A stretch of DNA of 64,000 nt from Escherichia coli (GCF_024502345.1 NZ_JALDNN010000003.1), one strand, 5' to 3'; shown: positions 24,568 to 63,572, counted from the stretch's first letter. The notes: generated from the sequence alone by a model not told the origin. Numbers and translations: made by a program.

Positions 24568-24584
24568 TCGTGAGGTAATAAAAA

Positions 24585-24612
24585 CCCCTGTCAGGCGTTA
24601 ACCTGACAGGGG
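24585..24612. terminator. Bidirectional rho-independent terminator between convergent genes
   Basis: CCCCTGTCAGG-cgttaa-CCTGACAGGGG flanked by AAAA upstream and TTTTC downstream. Confidence 0.65.
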
Positions 24613-24636
24613 TTTTCTTTAGCGAATCAGTGGCTG

Positions 24637-25889: not shown

Positions 25890-26070
25890 CGTTCACCTTA
25901 TGTTATTCACTTCTCTGAAACCATCCTACCTGTGAACGTGTTAAGGGTACTATCGCCGTACCCTTAACAATCCCGGCGGGAGCCTGGGTTGCAAGGGAGG
26001 CGGCGGTGAGCCTCCCTTGCTCGTTCACGGGTATCAGTGCTTCAGAGAAGTGATACCGCTGAGGTGAACG
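25890..26070. other. Highly structured intergenic element: three nested long-range helices enclosing two perfect hairpins
   Basis: Pairings 25890-25898/26062-26070, 25907-25919/26041-26053 (13 bp), 25932-25938/26022-26028; hairpins GTTAAGGGTAC...GTACCCTTAAC (25940-25968) and GCAAGGGAGG...CCTCCCTTGC (25991-26020); stems conserved while spacers differ. Confidence 0.4.
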
Positions 26071-42366: not shown

Positions 42367-44834
42367 GTCGCTGACATCGTGCAACGACACAGAGCTAACG
42401 CTTAGGGTGTCATTTCGCCCTCAGCCGGAACCGACCCCAAGGACAGCGACTCTCAGTGATGGAGCACCTAAAAAGAGGCCCTGTCACTATCAGCGGCCCC
42501 GCATTCACTGAAGCACTTGAACGTTACACTCGCCTGCGCAGCCTGGAATTTTCCTGCCTGAATTTCACTGGGCTGCCTGCCATACAGCTCCGCAACCTGG
42601 CACGCTATGCCGGAATGGCATCGGTGAAATATATCAGCAGAATGCCAGAAGAACGGCGGCTGGCTATCCTTACCGCGTTCGTGAAAGCGCAAGAAATCTC
42701 GGCGCTGGACGAGGCCGTTGACGTGCTGGATATGCTGATCCTCAATATTACCAGGGAGGCGAAGAAAACCGGGCAGAAAAAGCGACTTAGGACGCTCAAG
42801 GATCTTGACCGTGCGGCGTTGTTGCTGGCGCGGGCATGTGCACTTTTACTTGATGAAGATACTGGTGATGATTTGCTGCGAAAGACCATATTCAGCAGTG
42901 TACCTGTCGCCAGACTGGCAGAGTCAGTGGAAAAAGTGAATGAACTGGCCCGCCCCCAGGATACAAACTTTCAGGATGAAATGGTGGAGCAGTACGGACG
43001 GGTAAGGCGTTTTTTGCCCGCACTACTGCGCGATCTGCACTTCCGGGCGGCCCCAGACGGTGAACATACCCTCGCGGCCATCCATTACCTGGCAGAGCTA
43101 AACGGCTCGAAAAAACGGATCCTGGACGATGCACCTGAGCATATCATTTCAGGCCCTTGGAAACGCCTGGTGTACGATGCTGAAGGTCGGATACAGCGAG
43201 CGGGTTACTCGTTGTGTCTGCTGGAGCGACTTCAGGATGCGCTACGCCGTCGTGACATCTGGTTGGAAAACAGCGATCGTTGGGGTGATCCGCGCCAAAA
43301 ACTTCTTCAGGGGGAGGAATGGCAGGCGCAGCGGGTTCCAGTGTGCCGGGCATTGGGTCACCCCACCAATGGCAGTAAAGCATCGGTGCAATTGGCAGCA
43401 CGGTTGGATGAAACCTGGAAAACGGTGGCATCACGTTTTGACCGCAATACCGCCGTAGACATCTGCAATGAAGGTAAACATCCTTCGCTGACCATCAGCA
43501 GCCTGGATAAATTGGATGAGCCACCGGCGCTGATACGACTGAGCAGCCGAGTCAGACAATTGCTCCCACCCGTTGACCTGACAGAACTGTTGCTTGAGAT
43601 TGACGCCAGAACGGGTTTCACCCGTGAATTCAGCCATGTCAGCGAGTCAGGTGCCCGCGCGCAGGATCTGCATATAAGCCTGTGTGCGGTGATGCTGGCT
43701 GAGGCCTGCAATATCGGACATGAGCCGCTGATCAAGCACAATATCCCTGCACTGACCCGCCATCGCCTGAGCTGGGTGAAACAGAACTACATCCGAGCAG
43801 AAACGCTGGTCAGCGCCAATGCGCGGCTGGTTGATTTTCAGTCCTCGTTAGCGTTGGCAGGATACTGGGGTGGCGGTGAGGTGGCCTCCGCTGATGGTAT
43901 GCGTTTTGTCACACCAGTGAAAACGGTGAATTCTGGCCCCAACAGAAAATACTTTGGTTCAGGGCGCGGCATTACCTGGTACAACTTTGTCTCTGACCAA
44001 TATTCGGGTTTTCATGGCATAGTGATCCCTGGAACGCTGCGGGATTCCATTTTTGTGCTGGAGGGACTACTTGAGCAACAAACGGGACTAAACCCGGTTG
44101 AAATCATGACGGACACAGCAGGTACCAGTGACATTATCTTTGGCTTGTTCTGGCTACTGGGATACCAATTTTCACCTCGTCTGGCGGATGCTGGTGAGGC
44201 GGTGTTCTGGCGGGCTGACAAAGCAGCGAATTACGGGGCGTTGGACGAACTGGCTCGGGGTTGTGTTGACCTTTCTAAAATCGAAAGCCACTGGGATGAG
44301 ATGATGCGGGTTGCAGGTTCGCTGAAGCTGGGCACAATTCATGCGTCAGAACTCATTCGATCGCTATTGAGAAGTACCCGACCGTCAGGGCTTGCTCAGG
44401 CAATAATGGAGGTCGGAAGAGTTAACAAGACACTGTATCTTCTCAACTATATTGATGATGAGGACTATCGCCGCAGGATCCTAACACAGCTTAACCGGGG
44501 CGAAGGTCGCCATGCCGTGGCAAGAGCCATTTGCTACGGTCAGCGTGGTGAGATCAGAAAACGTTACCGCGAGGGGCAGGAAGATCAGTTGGGTGCGCTG
44601 GGTCTGGTGACAAACGCAGTGGTGCTGTGGAATACGCTTTATATGCAGGAAGCCTTGTCGCACCTGCGTAGCACTGGGGAAGGGCCAGAAGATGAACATA
44701 TCGCGCGGCTTTCGCCTCTGATGCATGGTCATATCAACATGCTGGGACATTATACGTTCACACTACCGGAGGATATTATGAAGGGGGAATTGAGGCCGTT
44801 AAATCTCAATTTAAACAATGAATTACCTCCTTAG
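42367..44834 (+). pseudogene. tnpA: Tn3-family transposase TnpA, lacking roughly the first 200 codons (truncated at IS26)
   Basis: Translation aligns with Tn3-family TnpA from about residue 210 to the C-terminus (...LGALGLVTNAVVLWNTLYMQEAL...MLGHYTFTLPE...); in-frame stop 30 bp from the IS26 boundary. Confidence 0.8.
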
Positions 44835-44867
44835 CGTGGTTTTTTACATCATTGGCCCTCAAACCCC
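44830..44867. repeat. Tn3-family 38-bp terminal inverted repeat (tnpA-proximal end)
   Basis: Reverse complement GGGGTTTGAGGGCCAATGATGTAAAAAACCACGCTAAG has the GGGG...ACGCTAAG signature; tnpA stop codon lies inside it. Confidence 0.8.
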
Positions 44868-45056
44868 TTATATGCGTTCTTAACGTTTGCTGCCCACTGT
44901 TCAATGCGGAGCATCATTGCATATGTTGCTGCGGCATCAAGATCCAGTTGTTCAGAGTGTTCAGGGAGCAGAATTTTACAATATTCCAGTCATGAGCCAC
45001 AGCTCCGAGCCGTTCATAAAGTGTAGATAGTTGCGTTATGGAATCATCAGTGCGGT

Positions 45057-45725
45057 TCATGAATAGCGCCGACTTCCAATAATATATTGAGCAAGTTTGA
45101 TGTTAAGACATACCATGTTGCTTGATAGTTGGCGCATCATACGGGATTCGCTACGAATTAAATAGGATTCAAGTAGTCCAGAATATTCCCCTGACGTTAC
45201 AACCGTCAACTGGGCAATGTGATTATTTAATTTGCTTACCCCTGCCAGGATATCATCCTCCGTCGCCTCGATATAAACGGGGGAGGCAGCGATAACATAA
45301 TCATCGAAAGGTCTTGCTGCCATCAATGTCTCAATAGATTTCGCCGTCCTTTCTTTCCCGAATGTATTTGTTAATTCCCGCCACCATTGTCGGTGACTGA
45401 ACGGTAAATCATGAAAGGTGGCTTCATAAGCGTCCACGAGGTCACGACTATTCAAAAAACCCAACCCGGCCGAGATCACCCACAACTCCAGGTTCTCAGT
45501 TGTCCGTAATATCTCTTTTGCCGTTGACCAGTGATTACCGGCATAGAGCGACAGGGCCGGTACCGGTGAAGCACTTTGCGACCGTTTAATCGTTGCTGCC
45601 CAGCTGGACATTGCCTCTTCTGGTGTCTGTCCAGACCGGATACTCAGTTCTGGCATGGAGCCGCACTGGCTGTGCTTACCTTTGGTACAGGACGTTATTA
45701 GGTGTGTAATTCGCGACGCCGCCAT
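45057..45725 (-). CDS. hypothetical protein (222 aa)
   Basis: ATG with GAGGG RBS; no motif recognised. Confidence 0.45.
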   Translation of the reverse strand: MAASRITHLITSCTKGKHSQCGSMPELSIRSGQTPEEAMSSWAATIKRSQSASPVPALSLYAGNHWSTAKEILRTTENLELWVISAGLGFLNSRDLVDAYEATFHDLPFSHRQWWRELTNTFGKERTAKSIETLMAARPFDDYVIAASPVYIEATEDDILAGVSKLNNHIAQLTVVTSGEYSGLLESYLIRSESRMMRQLSSNMVCLNIKLAQYIIGSRRYS

Positions 45726-45933
45726 TTTGTAGCCCTCAGCCAAATGTGTGTAATCACTGTCTAACTATCGTAACAGCCCCTCATCCGCCATAACGACAAA
45801 GAGGAAGCCCTAAACGTAAACGACTACCCCATTATACATTTAGTCATGCCTTTACTAATAACTAGATACCAAAGTAAACACCCCAGAGGTGACACCGTCA
45901 CGTTTTTCGGCTTTATTTAGTTCATTTTATGTA

Positions 45934-45965
45934 CTATGGGATTTAATTATGGGTAAATCCCATAG
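45934..45965. promoter_or_regulatory. Palindromic candidate operator in a 420-bp divergent intergenic region
   Basis: CTATGGGATTT-n10-AAATCCCATAG perfect 11-bp inverted repeat. Confidence 0.3.
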
Positions 45966-46233
45966 ATTTACACCTCTACTCAAAAGAGCCTAATAGAAAC
46001 TAAATCCTTATATATCAATAACTTGAATTCGCCATCACGCACCCATAGAGAGCACCCGTCTTTTGTCGGGCCGTAGGGTTGTTGGCCCCATAGTAACTGC
46101 ATGCTAATCTCTTTCATGCTTAGTCACTAGTAAAGGCTTTACTAATTGCGATGCTACGTGAATATTATTGACGGAGGAGGGGGTTGGGGCAGTGAAAATC
46201 TCTCAGCCAAAACAGTGGGAAAAGGATCGTGAA

Positions 46234-47046
46234 ATGAGCATGAATTATCAGCCGGAACTGAAGTTGAGTACCCGCACCGAACAACTCGCCAGTAGTCGTG
46301 ATGCCGCTATGCAAAAATTTCTGGACGGTATTATGCTGATTGCCGAAGCCTCAGCTATTTGCGGGTTTTCACTATTTAACAGCAAAATTATGGCCCCTAA
46401 TGCTTTTGGCCTTCCTGCGTCCCTGGCCGCAAGCATCGAGGAAGGGCGACAGCAAATAGACCGTAAGACATGGAACAATCTTTTTGAAGAAACGGGTATT
46501 GACCGATTCTGGAATCACAACCAGCGAGCGGAGTTCAGTGAGTCTCTCCGGTCCGCTCCGCCAATTGCGTCGTTAACCGTAATCCGTAGCACATTGCGCC
46601 AGGCAGTGGCCATTCGGAGCATCACGCTTGCTCAAGGGTTTGTTGATCTGCTATGCCAGCTTGATCGCCGGTATAAAACTAATGCCCAGCAATTTGTGAT
46701 GCCAAAAAAACTGGTACTACGTGGCATTTTTCCCGACTCGAACATGATGAGATATAACGGCTTTTCTCAGGATAATCTCTTCTATTTGAACGACTTTGAG
46801 AATATCGTTTGCATCTGCTCCAACGCAGCGACACCTCCTGTCGGCAGTGGATTGAATATGTACGACCGGCTTGCTGCCTTAAGGAAAACCGATTTTACTG
46901 GTGACATTACCGACCCGAAGGGCTGGAAGTGCCGATTGTTCGTAAATGGTAATGTCCATATTTCAGTTGAGTGTGAAAGCCTGCATAACACACTGAATGA
47001 CCTGATTAGCATTTATTTTGCCAACCAGATCCCGGCCAAAGGATAA
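46234..47046 (+). CDS. hypothetical protein (about 270 aa; alternative upstream starts to 46168)
   Basis: AAAGGA RBS 8 nt before ATG; stop 2 nt before the next gene start. Confidence 0.45.
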   Translation: MSMNYQPELKLSTRTEQLASSRDAAMQKFLDGIMLIAEASAICGFSLFNSKIMAPNAFGLPASLAASIEEGRQQIDRKTWNNLFEETGIDRFWNHNQRAEFSESLRSAPPIASLTVIRSTLRQAVAIRSITLAQGFVDLLCQLDRRYKTNAQQFVMPKKLVLRGIFPDSNMMRYNGFSQDNLFYLNDFENIVCICSNAATPPVGSGLNMYDRLAALRKTDFTGDITDPKGWKCRLFVNGNVHISVECESLHNTLNDLISIYFANQIPAKG

Positions 47047-47048
47047 GA

Positions 47049-48269
47049 ATGATGACTGACAATGAAAATTTGATGAACGGGGATGAACAGACAGCGTCCA
47101 ATTTAAGTGAAGAGACAACAAAAAAGCGCCCTCTCAGCCCCGAACTACTGAAGAATTCTCCTTATTCATCAATAGCTAAGGTTAAATATTTCACCGAAAT
47201 TGAACAAATCTGCCTCGATAAGGGCATCAGCACCGAAAACCTCGATCAGTTTTTCAAAGCCCACTGGCTGCGGGATAAAATGGGGGGGTCTTTTGCCCGC
47301 GCTCAGGAGATGCTGGCTGCCTACAAGCAATACGTGGACGAGGTGCCCGAGGAAGCGCGTGCGATTGAAATCCCTGACCAGATTAAAGAAGCATTTAGTG
47401 ATTTTACTGCGTTTATCATCTGGTACTTCCGCTTAAGCTATACGGCTATCCAGAGTGATAGCGTGAAAATTGCGAAGGCAGAAATTACTCAGTTAAGACA
47501 TCGGAATGCTGAAATTCTGGAAGAACTGTCACAGTCGAAAGAACAGGTTACAGTACTGAATAACGAAAAAGTTAACCTGATTAACCAGCTGGAACAACAG
47601 CGTGAACTCGCCAGTAAATTGGGGGATTCACTTCGGGAAGCAGAAGAAGCGCTGGCTACAACCCAAAGTGAATTACAGCATGCCCAAAACGAGATTCAGC
47701 TTATACAGCAGACAGTAGGGACACTGAACCAACAACTGAGTGAGCGCAAGCAGGAACTGGCCTCCCAGCAGGAGTACCAGAAGCAACTGAATGATGAGAA
47801 TAAAGAGCAGCAGGTAGAGCTGACAGCCCTCAAAAGCCAGAATGAACACTTACAACGGACCGTATCTGATTTAAAGGTCAGTGTCAGTCAGCTTGAACAG
47901 GACCTTTCCTCAGCACAAACCCATTCCTCTGAATTGAGCTCATCTTTAGCCGAAAAGGACACGGCCCTGACGCTCGTGCGGTCGGAGCTGTCAACAGCTA
48001 AAGGGGAGAATGAACAACTTCGAGCTGAAGCACAACGCTTAGGTGATGAGAGCCTGCTTGCCAAAAAGGTGCAAACAGCTCAGACAGAAGAACTTCGGAA
48101 GCTCCAGAATCAGATGATATCCATGGAAGCGACACTCAATGCGGAAAAGACCATTTCAGAGTCTTTACGAGGAACAATCAAGCAGCTTACCGAAGCTATG
48201 ACCGGCGCAGTTGCCATCAAACCTAAATCCTCTGGGGCATCAAAACCGCGAAACAAAAAGACGACATAA
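47049..48269 (+). CDS. Coiled-coil protein with KfrA-like N-terminal putative DNA-binding region
   Basis: N-terminal about 100 aa then about 250 aa of Q/E/L-rich heptad-like sequence (...LREAEEALATTQSELQHAQNEIQLIQQTVGTLNQQLSERKQELASQQ...). Confidence 0.4.
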   Translation: MMTDNENLMNGDEQTASNLSEETTKKRPLSPELLKNSPYSSIAKVKYFTEIEQICLDKGISTENLDQFFKAHWLRDKMGGSFARAQEMLAAYKQYVDEVPEEARAIEIPDQIKEAFSDFTAFIIWYFRLSYTAIQSDSVKIAKAEITQLRHRNAEILEELSQSKEQVTVLNNEKVNLINQLEQQRELASKLGDSLREAEEALATTQSELQHAQNEIQLIQQTVGTLNQQLSERKQELASQQEYQKQLNDENKEQQVELTALKSQNEHLQRTVSDLKVSVSQLEQDLSSAQTHSSELSSSLAEKDTALTLVRSELSTAKGENEQLRAEAQRLGDESLLAKKVQTAQTEELRKLQNQMISMEATLNAEKTISESLRGTIKQLTEAMTGAVAIKPKSSGASKPRNKKTT

Positions 48270-48540
48270 CTGCTCCCGCCAGGAATTTGCAATAGACTTA
48301 AATTCCTGGCGTCCACAGGCTCTTTATCCCGTTCGCAGGAGTTTACGTCCTTCCGACAGCATTAGGCTGATTTTCCCCGAATCACTGATCTCAATAGCAT
48401 CAACCAGGCTAGTGATCCCGCCAACAGCTTGCTGTTGTGAAATAGCTCCCAGTTTGTAGTCATCGAGTACTGCCGCCAAAAACGCCTTCAGTTTAACCTG
48501 CTCACTCATCGAAAGTATGTACGCCATTTTTAGCCCCATT

Positions 48541-49860
48541 TTAAGGTTGTGATTCGGGTGAATTGTATCGTCTAGCTTCCGGGAAATGAGGGAGTTCCTG
48601 GTATTCAGTCTTCTCCGTAGCATCCCAGTGCCACCATCCATAGGCCCCATATTCCTGGTTGTAATACGCCTTCTTAAGTTCCTTTCGCGCAAGATAGGCA
48701 GGTGTCGACATCCCGAAAACTTCCATCGGGAACGGCTTATCACTTCGTGTATCCAGTAAATAAAAATCTGGGAAAACATCGCTCACACTGGCGTCATACC
48801 GCATAGGCTTAACATAGTGCCGGTGTTCGGCATCAAGTTTACGGGACACTATCGCTTCGTAGGAGGAGTCCAGAGGTATCCAGTTATCACTCACCAGCAT
48901 AAGCACTATCTGATGAGCTCGTGCAGAGATACCTCTACTGGTCACCGATACGGGAGATGTAAGAGCAAAAACAACAACTTTGCCCCCATTTTTCCAGGCG
49001 GCATATTCCAGAGGGAATCGCCGCTTCACGCTATCCCAGTGCCCGTCTGAGTTAAAGAAGGTAAGGGGCATACCGCCGAAGTTACGCATAGGTAGAAACT
49101 TCAGCGGCTTCTCATGCTTTTCTGCGTCATAGCGCGGCAGTACTGATAGCAGCAGCAGTCGTTTGTCGCTCAGTTCCGCCGACGACAGCAGTTGAACCTG
49201 CTCACTGGCCACTTTGCTTTTAGAGTCCGCCACCCCGATAAAAAGATGGTCGCCAATACATGCTCTACCCGATCTAATCTGCTTTGCGGCTTCCAACATC
49301 CGGTATCGAACCAGCGAATCATTTCGCTTCCCGGCCATATTCGGATACCAGACATTAAGACCGGCTTCAGTCCACAACAGACTCAGAAGTCCGGACAGGG
49401 TCATTGAAGCCTGGCCACCTTCAGGTCGCTGGATTTGGGGCAGGGAAGGAACCTCAGACTTTTCCGGCGGATCTTTCTCCGTCATGCCTATTCCAAGGCG
49501 GATTGACATGGTCCCCTCATTGTTGATGCGTACAACATTGCTGGCATAACCCTTTAACCCTGTATGCCTGGCATCAAGGTCGAAAAACACACACGATGGA
49601 TCATGCTCAGTGCCGGTATTTGCAGCCTTAATCAGGATGAACGTATCACTGTTTGGTAGTGAGCGGACGTAGAGACGCTTTGCGCCTTTTCCCCGACATC
49701 CGCAGCTGATCACAGATTTCTGCCCGGACGTGTGGTGTGCTTTCTTCAGGGCCGACTGCCATCCCTTTACATACTCATCCTGTGTCTGAAATTCAGCCGA
49801 GTATCGTTTCGTGTTTGGTTCGTCATCGTAAGCAATAAAAACTGCAAACTTCTGGCCCAT
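48541..49860 (-). CDS. hypothetical protein (439 aa), last gene of the Dcm-like methyltransferase operon
   Basis: AGGAGG RBS; Cys/His cluster near the N-terminus (SCGCRGKG...HDPSC) and a possible D-x9-D-x-K segment (IGDHLFIGVADSKSK). Confidence 0.5.
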   Translation of the reverse strand: MGQKFAVFIAYDDEPNTKRYSAEFQTQDEYVKGWQSALKKAHHTSGQKSVISCGCRGKGAKRLYVRSLPNSDTFILIKAANTGTEHDPSCVFFDLDARHTGLKGYASNVVRINNEGTMSIRLGIGMTEKDPPEKSEVPSLPQIQRPEGGQASMTLSGLLSLLWTEAGLNVWYPNMAGKRNDSLVRYRMLEAAKQIRSGRACIGDHLFIGVADSKSKVASEQVQLLSSAELSDKRLLLLSVLPRYDAEKHEKPLKFLPMRNFGGMPLTFFNSDGHWDSVKRRFPLEYAAWKNGGKVVVFALTSPVSVTSRGISARAHQIVLMLVSDNWIPLDSSYEAIVSRKLDAEHRHYVKPMRYDASVSDVFPDFYLLDTRSDKPFPMEVFGMSTPAYLARKELKKAYYNQEYGAYGWWHWDATEKTEYQELPHFPEARRYNSPESQP

Positions 49861-49884
49861 GGGACCTCCTGAAATTTAAAAATA

Positions 49885-50052
49885 CTAATAGCCTAGCCAT
49901 ATCAATACTTCTTGCGCGTTGTACTCTTCCCTCTCACCCAACTCGGAAAAAAATACGTCTATGTCGCTGGCTACGACGCAATGTTTTGCAAGCTCTTGCA
50001 GAGCTCTCTGTTTTGAAATGGTGAGGTCTTCTGCTGAATCAAAATACGTCAT
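49885..50052 (-). CDS. small hypothetical protein (55 aa) between the methyltransferase and the 439-aa gene
   Basis: Not in the supplied ORF track (under 60 aa); GGAGG RBS 5 nt upstream of ATG; translation MTYFDSAEDLTISKQRALQELAKHCVVASDIDVFFSELGEREEYNAQEVLIWLGY. Confidence 0.35.
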   Translation of the reverse strand: MTYFDSAEDLTISKQRALQELAKHCVVASDIDVFFSELGEREEYNAQEVLIWLGY

Positions 50053-50183
50053 CATTACCTCCTGATGAAGGAGTTGACTGAAGCAGGCCTTTCTCTCCCT
50101 GCCCAGGTTTTTTTCTGTGCAAAAGTTACAATATTAGTGAAATAAACCATTACGTTAACCTGCAAAATCACACAGAAGAATTA

Positions 50184-51611
50184 CTATGATGCCGCTTCAA
50201 ATTCTCCCTTGAGACGAGCCGCAACGGCGATCTCAATACGGCTTCGAAGCAAACTGGCCACGGCCGCAAATACGTCGACGATGACCGAATTGCCGAACTG
50301 GCGATAGGCCTGGGTATCAGAGACTGGAATGCGAAAAGTAACTTTTCCCGGTTGCTCGAATCCCATAAGGCGGGCACATTCTCGCGGGGTTAAACGGCGC
50401 GGGCGCCTTGCCATATTTACAGGATCATTAAAGTCCTTTTCGCCTATGCTGTGATCCCATCCACGGTCTAGCAAAATTTCAGAGCCATCACGATAGTACC
50501 GTGCGCTGAGTGTTCTGCAAACAACTGATTTATCAAGTGGATTTACCAGTCCGAAGCCAAATCCATTACCTTTTGCCTGGTGCTTTTTAGCGTAGTTATA
50601 AAGGTACTCCCAGAGCTTTGGAGAAAGGATGTAACGGCTATCGACCTCAGCGTCCAGCAGCTCCCCAAGGGTTGGCCGTCGTGAAGGATAAAGAGCCGAT
50701 ACACCACTTAACGAAAAGCCATCATGGAGCTTCAGATCGCGCCTGAATCCAACCAACACGATACGTTCCCGGTGCTGAGGCCTGAAGTTCTTACCGTCAA
50801 TTATTTTGGGGTCCTTTGATCCGTGAGCATCGCAGTCGGCAACATCGTAGCCAAGTTCATCAAGCGCTTTCATGATGATGCGGAACGTATTTCCCTTATC
50901 GTGGCTCTTCAGATTTTTTACGTTCTCAAGAACGAAAATGGCAGGCTGTTTGGCTCGGATGATCCGGGCGACATCAAAAAAAAGGGTCCCCTGGGTGTCG
51001 CATTCAAAGCCGTGTTTTCGGCCCAAAGAGTTCTTTTTGCTGACACCGGCAATACTGAACGGCTGGCATGGGAAACCGGCGAGCAAAACATCATGGTCAG
51101 GAATGGATGCAGCGATAGAAGCATACGCCTGGTCTTCCGACACATCGGGAAGATTGCTGAGTGTAATGTCCCGGATATCTGAGTTGAAATGGTGCTCGGT
51201 GTCTTCGCAGTACCAGTTTGCACTGTATGTCCGGCGGGAGAACTGATTCCATTCGCTTGTAAACACGCATTTCCCGCCAATGGCGTCAAAACCACTCCGG
51301 AGGCCACCGATCCCAGCAAACAAGTCAATAAAACGGAAAAATTTCTGGTCATAGTCTGCTGGGCGTGAGGGGAGCAACGATCGAAGATAATGATATTCTT
51401 CCTGGGTTATTCGACATTCATTAACTGAACCTTTGATCTGGCGAATAAGTGATGCCCTCGACCAGTCGCTGCCGGTTGCAGCATTAAGTTGCGCAGCCAA
51501 ATCTTTTACGTCATAGATACTTGCAACCTGAACCAGTAATTTATGGATAGAGGAATGTGTCTCATCATTTAGCAATGCAGTTATTGCAGGCTCATTTCTC
51601 GCGCTGTACAT
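50184..51611 (-). CDS. dcm: DNA (cytosine-5) methyltransferase, Dcm/M.EcoRII-like
   Basis: Motif [16 protein letters not shown], motif [13 protein letters not shown], motif VI ENVKNL, motif X QFGNSV; full-length collinearity with Dcm (475 aa); GGAG RBS. Confidence 0.9.
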
Positions 51612-51833
51612 CCTTACTCCGTGAAATGTGATTAATTTAGGTTCTCAGACTACCACGCGCAGAAAATTCAATTTTTCTTTAAAGCCCTTTATTTTCATCT
51701 CCTGAAATAAATTTTTTATCCACTTAAATTGCCTCCGTTAACGGAAATTTGCCCGGGTTCTAATTGGTACAATAAGCACTTCTAATCACACGACTAATTT
51801 GTTACTACAAACCATCTAATTCAGGGAGAATGT

Positions 51834-52349
51834 ATGACTCTGTTGAAAAAGTTACTTTTGCCGACATTAATTGTCCTTTTCCCGGCGGCAGTTCTGGCTG
51901 GTCAGTCTTCATTTGAAGCAAAAGTGGTAAAAATTATCGATGGGGACACCATTACCGCGCTCGACGGTCAGAATACAAGCATCAAAATCCGTATGTACGG
52001 TATTGATGCCCCCGAAAGTAAGCAGGCCTTTGGACAAAAGGCTAAACAAGCGTTGAGCTCCGCGATTGCTGCACAGAATATTACGGTAATAGACCACGGA
52101 CCTGATATTTACGGCAGGATGTTGGGGACTATTTGGCTTGATGGTTATGACATCAACGCTTCAATGGTAGACAGTGGTTATGCATGGGTATATCGGTTTG
52201 ACGGTAATCCCATCGTCCCAAACTATCTTAAATTCGAAGCTTCAGCTCAGAAAGCCGTTAAAGGTCTCTGGGTAGATCCTAATCCCGTTGCTCCTTGGGA
52301 GTGGCGCCAGCAAAACCAGAAACCTCAAAAGACGAAAAGCAGGGGGTGA
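51834..52349 (+). CDS. Secreted thermonuclease (staphylococcal-nuclease/SNase fold)
   Basis: Signal peptide MTLLKKLLLPTLIVLFPAAVLAG; SNase-like core (VVKIIDGDTI...IRMYGIDAPE...). Confidence 0.7.
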   Translation: MTLLKKLLLPTLIVLFPAAVLAGQSSFEAKVVKIIDGDTITALDGQNTSIKIRMYGIDAPESKQAFGQKAKQALSSAIAAQNITVIDHGPDIYGRMLGTIWLDGYDINASMVDSGYAWVYRFDGNPIVPNYLKFEASAQKAVKGLWVDPNPVAPWEWRQQNQKPQKTKSRG

Positions 52350-52354
52350 GCGCG

Positions 52355-62197: not shown

Positions 62198-63559
62198 TCA
62201 ATCTCCTGCGGAAAATTTGGCCGCAATTAGTTTCATTGTCCTTTCCATGCCTTGATAAACTGTCGCATCTGTAATGTTTAACCTTGCGAGTTCCTTAAGT
62301 ATTCTAGCTTTGTTTCTGATCACTATTTTTTCTACTTTAAACTCTTGCATAGCATCATCAGGGTTTGAAACTAAATCGGGATAAACAGCATTATTCCCAA
62401 ATAATAAGAATGCACCTGACTGTGATGACATCCTTTCATTATTATTTCTTCCTTTAACGAAAATTAACCTTTCCAAATCTGATGGTATAATTACATCTTT
62501 AAAATAAGGTTTTTCATCTTTAATGTAATGTATGAGTTTTTGACAAGCTTCAGTTTTATTGAAAGCCTCCTTGTCCATTTTACAATCCAGCTGATCTTTC
62601 AGTGTTTGACTTAGCATTGATATATTTGATATGCAACTTACTGTATCAGAGTCAAAGAATTTTATACGATCCCTTTTTGTTTTGAAAATAATAACATGTC
62701 CATCAACCTCATTTGTATTTTCATTATTACTAATGTCGCAACAAGCGAAATACAGAGCGATTAGTGGATTTGATGTTATATCCAACAAACGAGTTGGTAG
62801 TCCGTAGTGTTGCATCCTTACTAACTTGTCTAGCATTGTTTTATCATCAACAAACTCAGTTGGCCTTGCTGTTAGGGCTTCACGGACTAAATTTGATTCA
62901 CTGTGCAAATGCTTGAAGTTACCTTTTTTGTTTTTCCTGAAAACTGATGGAGCCAACTCGTAAGATACATCAGAATGTCCACGATAAAATATTTCTGCAT
63001 CTTCTTCATGATCTTGTTCTAAAACACGCGCCATGAAACTTTGAACATTATCTATTATTGGGTAGTTATCAACTTCATCAGGAAGTGCTTCAGTAGGAGG
63101 AAGTGGTGTACTTCTTGTCGTTATATTTAGAAGTGCTAATGTTTGATTTAAATCACGTGCTTTTATTCCCCAGTGAGTCCGTTTCAGCCCATATGCACCT
63201 AATTCTAAAGCTGTTTGATATAACTCTTTGTTTATCACTACGACATCATCTTGTGAGTGAGTGATTCTGAAATCAAACTCAACATTTTTGTTAACTGTTC
63301 GTAGATTTGAAATTACACCAAGTCGCAAAGTAATGTATTCAACATTGTCTCGGGAATAAAGTTCTGACATAAAAAGCGTAGGTAATTTCTCAATATAAGA
63401 TAATGCTTTATCATTCAAAGGCGTTAACTTCAACCGGATGTCATCAGAGGTGCCTTCTAACATACGTGATATAGGAAAATCACAACTCCCACTAACCCGT
63501 TCATACATGGGCCAATGTTCAAAATAGTCAGGTTCTCCGCCCATAATTAGATTAAACAT
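62198..63559 (-). CDS. FRG-domain protein (453 aa)
   Basis: FRG signature IFYRGHSDVSYELAPSVFR followed by HYGLPTRLLDITSNPLIALYFAC; flanking N- and C-terminal regions unrecognised; AAGGA RBS. Confidence 0.65.
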   Translation of the reverse strand: MFNLIMGGEPDYFEHWPMYERVSGSCDFPISRMLEGTSDDIRLKLTPLNDKALSYIEKLPTLFMSELYSRDNVEYITLRLGVISNLRTVNKNVEFDFRITHSQDDVVVINKELYQTALELGAYGLKRTHWGIKARDLNQTLALLNITTRSTPLPPTEALPDEVDNYPIIDNVQSFMARVLEQDHEEDAEIFYRGHSDVSYELAPSVFRKNKKGNFKHLHSESNLVREALTARPTEFVDDKTMLDKLVRMQHYGLPTRLLDITSNPLIALYFACCDISNNENTNEVDGHVIIFKTKRDRIKFFDSDTVSCISNISMLSQTLKDQLDCKMDKEAFNKTEACQKLIHYIKDEKPYFKDVIIPSDLERLIFVKGRNNNERMSSQSGAFLLFGNNAVYPDLVSNPDDAMQEFKVEKIVIRNKARILKELARLNITDATVYQGMERTMKLIAAKFSAGD

Positions 63560-63572
63560 TAAAACTAAATCC

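Follow-up and report, generated by a model that had tools for sequence, protein, structure and literature searches.

A stretch of 64,000 nucleotides from Escherichia coli (GCF_024502345.1 NZ_JALDNN010000003.1), which we call the window, carries at positions 45,057 to 48,269 a locus in which a gene of the DUF6884/DpdC family is read leftward and a pair of genes, encoding a DUF4942 protein and a long coiled-coil protein, is read rightward from a shared control region (Table 1). Comparison with other plasmids indicates that the locus is conserved backbone of the conjugative plasmids of incompatibility group HI (IncHI). We favor, while giving it somewhat less than an even chance, the explanation that this is an autoregulated divergent-promoter locus that acts on DNA in plasmid establishment or coexistence. 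A dimeric product of the rightward operon would bind palindromic elements in the control region and repress both promoters, with the effect of autoregulation and of co-regulation of whichever gene fills the divergent slot.

The evidence that the two rightward genes belong together comes from four lineages, namely IncHI1 (represented by the window), IncHI2 and two others that we designate L005 and L006. An earlier note on this DNA had described three open reading frames (ORFs), all of which are present, and a gap of 2 nucleotides (nt) between the two plus-strand genes, which is also found in L005 and L006 and is replaced by a 4-nt overlap in IncHI2. This coupling has been kept despite identities of 49-63% for the DUF4942 proteins and 31-41% for the coiled-coil proteins, and the pair is followed by a convergent block consisting of a DUF1173 gene, a small gene and a Dcm-type methyltransferase gene. 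The divergent slot is occupied by DUF6884 in IncHI1 and IncHI2, by an FRG-domain gene in L005 and by a GIY-YIG gene in L006, and in IncHI2 an extra gene of 126 amino acids (aa) comes first in the divergent unit, before DUF6884. Tight coupling across lineages on one side of the control region and a variable slot on the other lead us to regard DUF4942 plus the coiled-coil gene as the firm unit, and DUF6884 as a frequent but replaceable companion. The ratio of nonsynonymous to synonymous differences (pN/pS), in comparisons with unsaturated synonymous sites, is 0.14 for the DUF4942 gene and 0.20-0.26 for the coiled-coil gene; both are therefore real genes under purifying selection.

In PLSDB, the plasmid collection used for our distribution counts, a 3.5-kilobase (kb) stretch covering the locus has DNA matches in 290 plasmids of Escherichia, Salmonella, Citrobacter, Klebsiella and Enterobacter, 278 of them conjugative, in keeping with the plasmid setting that the earlier note had supposed. 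The matching plasmids examined are typed as IncHI1A or as hybrids containing IncHI1A and have MOBH relaxases, and IncHI2 plasmids have a diverged copy with the same arrangement and 57-63% protein identity.

The control region and its conserved elements

The longest minus-strand ORF begins with a TTG at 45743 (228 aa) and the longest form of the DUF4942 ORF with a TTG at 46168 (292 aa). The 424 base pairs (bp) between these fit the 420-bp spacer of the earlier note, whereas the likely start codons are 508 bp apart. GAGGG is found 9 nt upstream of the minus-strand ATG, and AAGGA 8 nt upstream of the DUF4942 ATG, which is conserved in IncHI2, L005 and L006. The spacer has a GC content of 42%, as compared to 53% for the window, and its alignment across seven lineages reveals four islands, elements A, B, C and D, that are 77-100% conserved within fast-diverging DNA.

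Element C is the palindrome to which the earlier note had drawn attention as a possible operator. It is perfect and lies exactly where it had been placed, but is better described as 12-n8-12 than with the 10-nt loop originally proposed; elements A, B and D had been overlooked. With 12-nt arms and a loop of at most 12 nt as the criterion, 14 of 20,000 first-order Markov simulations of the 508-bp spacer contained a perfect inverted repeat, and the mean for simulations of the whole 64-kb window was 0.08. Element C is 91-97% conserved, as compared to 44-55% for the 155 nt between C and D (45966-46120), and at its position L005 and L006 have CTATGCGATATAA-n6-TTATATCGCATAG, in which both arms have changed together, a pattern that speaks for an operator. 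The half-site of C has no paired recurrence elsewhere in the window; C is a single copy and not an array.

Elements A and D, situated 287 bp apart from start to start, are related both as a direct repeat (D1) and as an inverted repeat (I1); the D motif has two matches in the window (0.08 expected), and these are A and D themselves. In two of the three IncHI1-type relatives in which A is fully conserved, the left flank of A is 76% conserved. At the position of D, L005 and L006 have another palindrome (CATAAC-AAA-GTTATG / CATTACC..GGTAATG), again with both arms changed. Element D overlaps the likely -35 hexamer of a putative plus-strand promoter with the -10 sequence TATTAT at 46163-46168, which aligns with TATAAT in L005, and element A overlaps the likely -35 hexamer of a putative minus-strand promoter with a perfect TATAAT -10 sequence at 45836-45831; these hexamers were read by eye and are weaker than the threshold of the promoter scan mentioned below.

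The arms of element B are invariant in the window, IncHI2, L005 and L006, as well as in the Typhi, Leclercia and Citrobacter sequences. Its 3-nt center varies and is inverted (ACC versus GGT) in two lineages, and no second exact copy occurs in the window. We considered element B as an intrinsic terminator and rejected this on the grounds that the T-run after it is not conserved. It was also rejected as a CRP site on the basis of spacing, TGTGA-n5-TCACA rather than the n6 of the CRP consensus. In the IncI plasmid pSTM709 (L012 9686-9700), a perfect palindrome, TGTGACATTGTCACA, follows the DUF4942 gene ydiA at a distance of 72 bp and immediately precedes mobB; it has the same arms as element B (Typhi version TGTGACACCGTCACA), a likeness that could reflect the site of a shared factor or chance.

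The DUF6884 gene and the spacer as far as palindrome C are 99-100% identical to their counterparts in a Salmonella Typhi IncHI1 plasmid (NC_016825.1, hereafter L014), whereas identity falls to 55% in the 155 nt after C, and the synonymous divergence (pS) of the coiled-coil gene is 0.16. This change of identity across C points to a mosaic locus with a recombination junction at or next to the palindrome. When 45820-46170 is folded as single-stranded DNA (ssDNA), A pairs with D in a long-range stem on either strand (z-score about -3). The modeled stem restates the repeats and may have no further meaning, or it might play a part in looping or in the entry of ssDNA into a recipient. No duplex -35/-10 mimic of the kind seen in Frpo-type hairpins is evident in the spacer ssDNA fold.

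Since A/D and C are lineage-specific, they would seem to be the sites of a co-diverging, locally encoded dimeric binder, and the DUF4942 and coiled-coil genes are the only ones that adjoin the spacer in all four lineages. The coiled-coil protein would be the likeliest repressor, by analogy to KfrA and TlpA at their own promoters, with element C as a central site between A and D. The existence of two lineage-specific palindrome classes suggests that DUF4942 may be a second DNA-binding partner.

Table 1. Coordinates, in the window, of the genes and elements of the locus and of its right flank
Feature	Position	Strand	Description
DUF6884/DpdC-family gene	45057..45725	-	222 aa from ATG at 45725
Element A	45837..45864		Core 45841-45857, TAGTCATGCCTTTACTA; imperfect copy of D; 100% conserved in three IncHI1-type relatives
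Element B	45889..45901		Palindrome GTGAC-ACC-GTCAC
Element C	45934..45965		CTATGGGATTTA-n8-TAAATCCCATAG, perfect 12-nt arms
Element D	46121..46148		Core 46128-46144, TAGTAAAG-G-CTTTACTA, perfect 8-1-8 palindrome; 79-89% conserved
DUF4942 gene	46234..47046	+	270 aa from ATG
Coiled-coil gene	47049..48269	+	406 aa; ATG 2 nt past DUF4942 stop (TAA)
Inverted repeat	48277..48311		CGCCAGGAATTT-n11-AAATTCCTGGCG, perfect, 12-nt arms; 8 nt past operon stop (48269)
Convergent block	48324-51611	-	67-aa gene (48324-48527), DUF1173 (439 aa), 56-aa gene (PHROG 25588), Dcm-type cytosine methyltransferase (475 aa)
Thermonuclease gene	about 51830-52350	+	Approximate coordinates

Family assignments of the three proteins

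The earlier note recognized no function for the DUF6884 and DUF4942 proteins; profile searches assign them to families that are known, albeit uncharacterized. In the DUF4942 protein, Pfam PF13708 matches over model positions 2-187 of 190 (E 4.2e-21), and the AlphaFold2 model is a confident one (predicted local distance difference test, pLDDT, 90.2; predicted template modeling score, pTM, 0.86). No solved fold matched this model, and the AFDB50 matches are DUF4942 proteins only, with the same predicted fold; many are fused to an N6-adenine methyltransferase, unlike the IncHI copy. A total of 349 relatives were found among representative proteins, and W80, D187, H242, N255 and an NGNxH motif are invariant. 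DUF4942 relatives occur in 4,638 PLSDB records, 4,292 of which are conjugative; 1,429 of the records have a relative of at least 60% identity.

Elsewhere, the DUF4942 family is associated with the leading region, the part of a conjugative plasmid that lies on the leading side of oriT. The YdiA and YgfB families of DUF4942 proteins hold ranks 24 and 76 among families enriched in leading regions, where they are labeled as uncharacterized (Samuel et al. 2024, supplementary file 3). On an IncI plasmid, ydiA is ~650 bp from nikA and is the nearest gene to oriT/nikA on the leading side, and in pOXA-48 the DUF4942 gene is located within the ssb-klcA antirestriction block of the leading region, upstream of mobA-traI. 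The IncHI copy shares its Pfam family, predicted fold and conjugative carriage with the YdiA/YgfB proteins of IncI, IncF and IncL/M leading regions; it differs from them in that identity is 22-26% and in having a coupled coiled-coil partner. Distant DUF4942 genes (~30% identity) adjoin genes for DUF1173, a thermonuclease (SNase) and H-NS, with PsiA ~5 kb away in one case (L020), and the convergent DUF1173/Dcm block accompanies DUF4942 even on distant plasmids. In a pOXA-48-type plasmid (L011 6046-9825), the DUF4942 gene directly follows a DGQHR-domain gene that is split by IS1; the DGQHR domain is familiar from DndB and DpdB. pOXA-48 carries the DUF6884 and DUF4942 families at separate places.

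In the Typhi plasmid noted above (L014 3954-4820), DUF4942 is interrupted by an in-frame stop, which leaves ORFs of 169 and 116 aa, and the coiled-coil gene is intact. A DUF4942 coding sequence is also unlisted in every plasmid shown of the class with ~95.8% identity, and in many classical IncHI1 plasmids the gene may thus have become a pseudogene.

For the DUF6884 protein, the PADLOC profile for DpdC, PDLC02818, gives an E-value of 1.4e-55 over profile positions 5-232 of 319 in an alignment that starts at residue 14 of the 222-aa form; six more DpdC models match, as does Pfam DUF6884 (PF21818, E 3.5e-7). The C-terminal ~87 positions of the DpdC profile are absent, so that correspondence over the full length fails. 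Two motifs that define the DUF6884 family, CxxxK and LSAxxG (PMC11701544), are represented by C13-T-K-G-K17 and I84-S-A-G-L-G89 (the latter conforming to (L/I)SAxxG) and are invariant in the IncHI1, IncHI2 and pOXA-48 homologues. The gene is annotated at 222 aa in the Typhi plasmid record, whereas in RefSeq NZ_CP081775.1 (292506-293060) PGAP calls a protein of 184 aa (start MSSWAAT...) for this lineage, a version from which the N-terminal CxxxK motif is lost; judging by the profile alignment and the motif, the start codon is miscalled there.

DpdC is the only characterized DUF6884 protein (PMC11888242), and the DpdC of Salmonella Montevideo, acting alone in vitro, converts preQ0-DNA to ADG-DNA by hydration (PMC10164549). 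The 222-aa protein resembles it in family, in the strength of the profile match and in both motifs, and differs from it in its partial alignment and in its setting: no dpdA, dpdB, dpdD-K or preQ0-synthesis genes were seen nearby, and neither dpdA, dpdB nor restriction genes are annotated in the flanks that were read in matching plasmids (~12-45 kb on either side, rather than the whole plasmid). Since DpdC acts on DNA without DpdA or DpdB in vitro, a stand-alone enzyme of 222 aa is conceivable. Searches with tblastn found DUF6884 relatives in 2,997 plasmids that lack the DUF4942/coiled-coil operon, pOXA-48 included, and 2,548 of these are conjugative; by its sequence relationships the 222-aa protein belongs to this plasmid-borne, stand-alone DpdC-like clade. 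In a pOXA-48-type IncL/M plasmid (L008 8717-9669), the DUF6884-like gene overlaps an upstream helix-turn-helix (HTH) gene. A scan of contigs for DpdC-like relatives yielded five enterobacterial plasmid-like contigs, with patterns too specific to be informative about chromosomes. DUF6884 has been described as distantly related to YaaA (DUF328), with which it has a positively charged DNA-binding cleft in common, and base flipping has been modeled for YfjM (PMC11701544); the likeness to these "cantaloupe-fold" proteins comes from the literature, and a PDB sequence search with the DUF6884 alignment retrieved neither YaaA nor any other solved chain, only a spurious PPR match.

The coiled-coil protein has a conserved N-terminal region (residues ~38-135) that is predicted to be all-helical, a coiled coil of ~250 aa at residues 137-392 (1 proline, 6 glycines and a hydrophobic occupancy of heptad positions a/d of 0.5-0.84) and a basic C-terminal tail, KPKSSGASKPRNKKTT. 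NCBIfam SMC/Rad50 profiles match residues ~137-392 (143-391), i.e., they yield coiled-coil noise only. The N-terminal domain was detected only in ~1,430 IncHI-type plasmids, a count equal to that for DUF4942 at the 60% level; two homology searches with this domain returned IncHI relatives and fragments only, and a PDB sequence search with it returned nothing. The term KfrA-like, used in the earlier note, holds for the architecture of the protein and not by any sequence test. As in KfrA of RK2/R751 and TlpA of the Salmonella plasmid pSLT, there are 342-406 aa, with a short helical N-terminus, a long coiled coil that runs on without interruption and a tail rich in G, K and R, and the gene has an early place in a small plasmid operon that is preceded by a palindrome. 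The differences are that the conserved N-terminal region is ~40 residues further in and about twice as long, that the gene is second in its operon, where it is coupled to DUF4942, and that the family is confined to IncHI. The best local match found with hhalign sets an LRxxxGG-SF....Y stretch of the query on residues 27-47 of KfrA and 25-52 of TlpA, which falls in the N-terminal DNA-binding part of both proteins and is a lead only.

NCBIfam has no family for DUF6884, DUF4942 or DUF1173, PHROGs gave matches to unannotated families only, and an Rfam search of the locus matched no RNA family. Our literature search turned up no work on the function of DUF4942, of DUF1173 or of the DUF6884 proteins of plasmids.

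Weighing the explanations

In the explanation that we favor, the leftward unit would supply a stand-alone DpdC-family protein, by analogy an enzyme of the DNA-binding, base-flipping type, and the rightward unit the translationally coupled DUF4942 and coiled-coil proteins. The weakest step is the last one, that the locus may act in DNA transactions that aid establishment or coexistence of the plasmid in a new host. We prefer such a role because of the association of the DUF4942 family with leading regions and the nature of DUF6884 as a DNA enzyme, and we would group the locus with its conserved neighbors, DUF1173, the orphan Dcm methylase, the thermonuclease and H-NS, rather than with partition or anti-phage defense.

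A number of observations weigh against this explanation. Leading-region placement is true of the DUF4942 family elsewhere, and the case for the IncHI copy is weak: no relaxase, ssb or psi genes are found within ~22-25 kb of the locus in IncHI1 Typhi and IncHI2 plasmids. The distant DUF4942 genes are without a coiled-coil partner, and the in-frame stop in the Typhi plasmid indicates that a plasmid can sometimes do without the complete DUF4942/coiled-coil pair. A scan for consensus promoters found none in the spacer. Only two operator classes are available, so co-variation cannot separate the coiled-coil protein, DUF4942 and a regulator encoded elsewhere as the binder. A DNA-binding domain is demonstrated in none of the three proteins. 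Pfam KfrA_N (PF11740) matches neither the full-length coiled-coil protein nor its residues 1-166, nor the orthologues of L005, L006 and IncHI2, and with three fragmentary close homologues it gives E-values of at most 0.1 (best 1.4e-3) that are below significance and possibly due to the coiled coil. The hhalign comparisons with R751 KfrA (E 0.76) and pSLT TlpA (E 0.23) are likewise not significant, and the AlphaFold2 model of the N-terminus, built from a 7-sequence alignment, is unusable (pLDDT 52.6). Finally, the missing dpdA, dpdB and preQ0 genes in the flanks described above belong on this side of the balance.

The strongest competitor, although we consider it unlikely, is that there is no three-gene module at all. 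DUF6884 would then be an independent passenger, and the palindromes would serve trans-acting regulators of the plasmid or the host, e.g., H-NS/Hha or a factor that binds element B. The variability of the divergent slot, including the extra gene that comes first in IncHI2, speaks for this alternative, as do the DUF6884 relatives found without the operon, of which the pOXA-48 gene that follows an HTH gene is an example. Element B has kept invariant arms in lineages whose proteins have diverged to 31% identity, and the same arms (TGTGAC-n3-GTCACA) stand beside the DUF4942 gene of the IncI plasmid; the recombination junction within the spacer and the AT-richness of the spacer are also on the side of this alternative. 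Against it is the placement of A and D, a single motif, symmetrically at both promoters, which argues for co-regulation of the two units whatever fills the slot. The change of A/D and C with lineage also fits a co-diverging local regulator better than a conserved host factor, and DUF6884 occupies the same position in IncHI1 and IncHI2 despite 57% protein identity.

Somewhat less probable is plasmid maintenance of the KfrA type, in which the coiled-coil protein would serve as a scaffold or as an aid to partition, with element C as its operator or a centromere-like anchor and DUF4942 as a partner similar to KfrB or KfrC. The KfrA/TlpA-like architecture with its basic C-terminal tail, the palindrome in the protein's own upstream region, the multi-gene operon (cf. 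kfrA-kfrB-kfrC of R751) and the backbone status in ~1,430 IncHI plasmids all agree with it. It is opposed by the lack of support for membership in KfrA_N and by element C being a single copy. No ParA, ParM or ParB is annotated in the locus or in the flanks read of matching plasmids, and DUF4942, which is unrelated to KfrB and KfrC and is elsewhere a leading-region family, is a pseudogene in a Typhi plasmid that circulates stably.

The earlier note had proposed a cassette for plasmid maintenance or defense. Besides the missing par genes, the lack of dpdA/dpdB nearby, the non-obligate presence of DUF6884 and the Typhi in-frame stop in DUF4942 speak against that proposal; clear homology to characterized partition or conjugation proteins, which the earlier note had named as grounds for refuting it, was not found. 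Defense as such, i.e., a cassette active against phages or other mobile genetic elements through restriction based on DNA modification, possibly with DUF1173 and Dcm, is in our view improbable. The strong PADLOC match to DpdC would favor it, as would weak matches of the coiled-coil protein to JetC and LmuB, but the Dpd system requires DpdA/DpdB and DpdD-K, none of which is nearby in the flanks read, and the JetC/LmuB matches cover coiled-coil segments only, without ATPase heads. The adjoining cytosine methyltransferase might suggest restriction, and so might DUF1173, a family that has been placed among PD-(D/E)XK relatives (PMC3045609), but DUF1173 is without the nuclease active-site signature (PMC3045609), and PADLOC has no other system match for DUF4942 or DUF6884. 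FRG and GIY-YIG genes in the slot of relatives and a transposon with SIR2 and ATPase genes alongside also recall defense; the transposon that carries the SIR2 cargo is a separate Tn3-family element, with an inverted repeat ending at 44867.

We regard as more doubtful still an IncHI-specific module for counter-defense and establishment, in which the orphan DpdC-like enzyme would edit or mask base marks (for example of the 7-deazaguanine type, as a means of evading or imitating Dpd-like restriction), DUF4942 would work on incoming DNA jointly with a TlpA-like coiled-coil repressor, and this repressor would tie both promoters to temperature in a way that would match the thermosensitive transfer of IncHI plasmids.

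Surroundings of the locus and its meaning for IncHI plasmids

To the left of the locus is the Tn3-family transposon with its SIR2 and ATPase cargo, which terminates in a 38-bp inverted repeat at 44830-44867. This right inverted repeat is inserted within a small gene that follows DUF6884, to which it is joined by an ATGA overlap (window 44830-45060); compared with its 90-aa counterpart in Typhi, the small gene is also frameshifted here. In IncHI1 Typhi and IncHI2 plasmids an H-NS-family gene comes after this small gene, and here it is missing. To the right, in order, are the 67-aa gene, DUF1173, the 56-aa gene, the orphan Dcm-type methyltransferase and the thermonuclease gene. The inverted repeat between the coiled-coil gene and this convergent block is probably the 3' boundary of the operon, as its position suggests. 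It was not called by the terminator scan because its loop exceeds 8 nt and a T-run is lacking, and a role as terminator is consequently one that we only infer. Further perfect inverted repeats with arms of at least 12 nt are located at 24581-24616 (AAAACCCCTGTCAGG...CCTGACAGGGGTTTT) and 25939-25969 (TGTTAAGGGTAC...GTACCCTTAACA). About 14 kb rightward of the locus, at about 62200-63560 on the minus strand, there is an FRG-domain gene, assigned by correspondence with L003 1631-2992; together with the FRG gene in the divergent slot of L005, it suggests that genes from a common pool move about in this part of the backbone.

Hundreds of database records already contain these sequences under DUF names, so that the locus as such is no novelty. 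The comparison adds assignments of the proteins to families, a corrected start codon, an operator-like architecture of four elements with arms that co-vary, a firm pairing between DUF4942 and a coiled-coil protein specific to IncHI, and a measure of how large the plasmid clade of stand-alone DpdC-like proteins is. IncHI1 and IncHI2 plasmids rank among the main vehicles of resistance to multiple drugs and to colistin in Salmonella, E. coli, Klebsiella and Enterobacter, and their conserved backbone includes a locus whose products are all uncharacterized, two of them from families that are widespread on conjugative plasmids (~4,600 records for DUF4942 and ~3,000 for stand-alone DpdC-like DUF6884). 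The spacer offers a compact regulatory system with two putative promoters, four conserved sites and natural variants of the palindromes that are altered in both arms at once. If this turns out to be an ordinary autoregulated accessory operon, then the main gain would be better annotation; the roles of an orphan DpdC-like enzyme and of DUF4942 could, on the other hand, reveal a new activity in plasmid establishment or anti-restriction.

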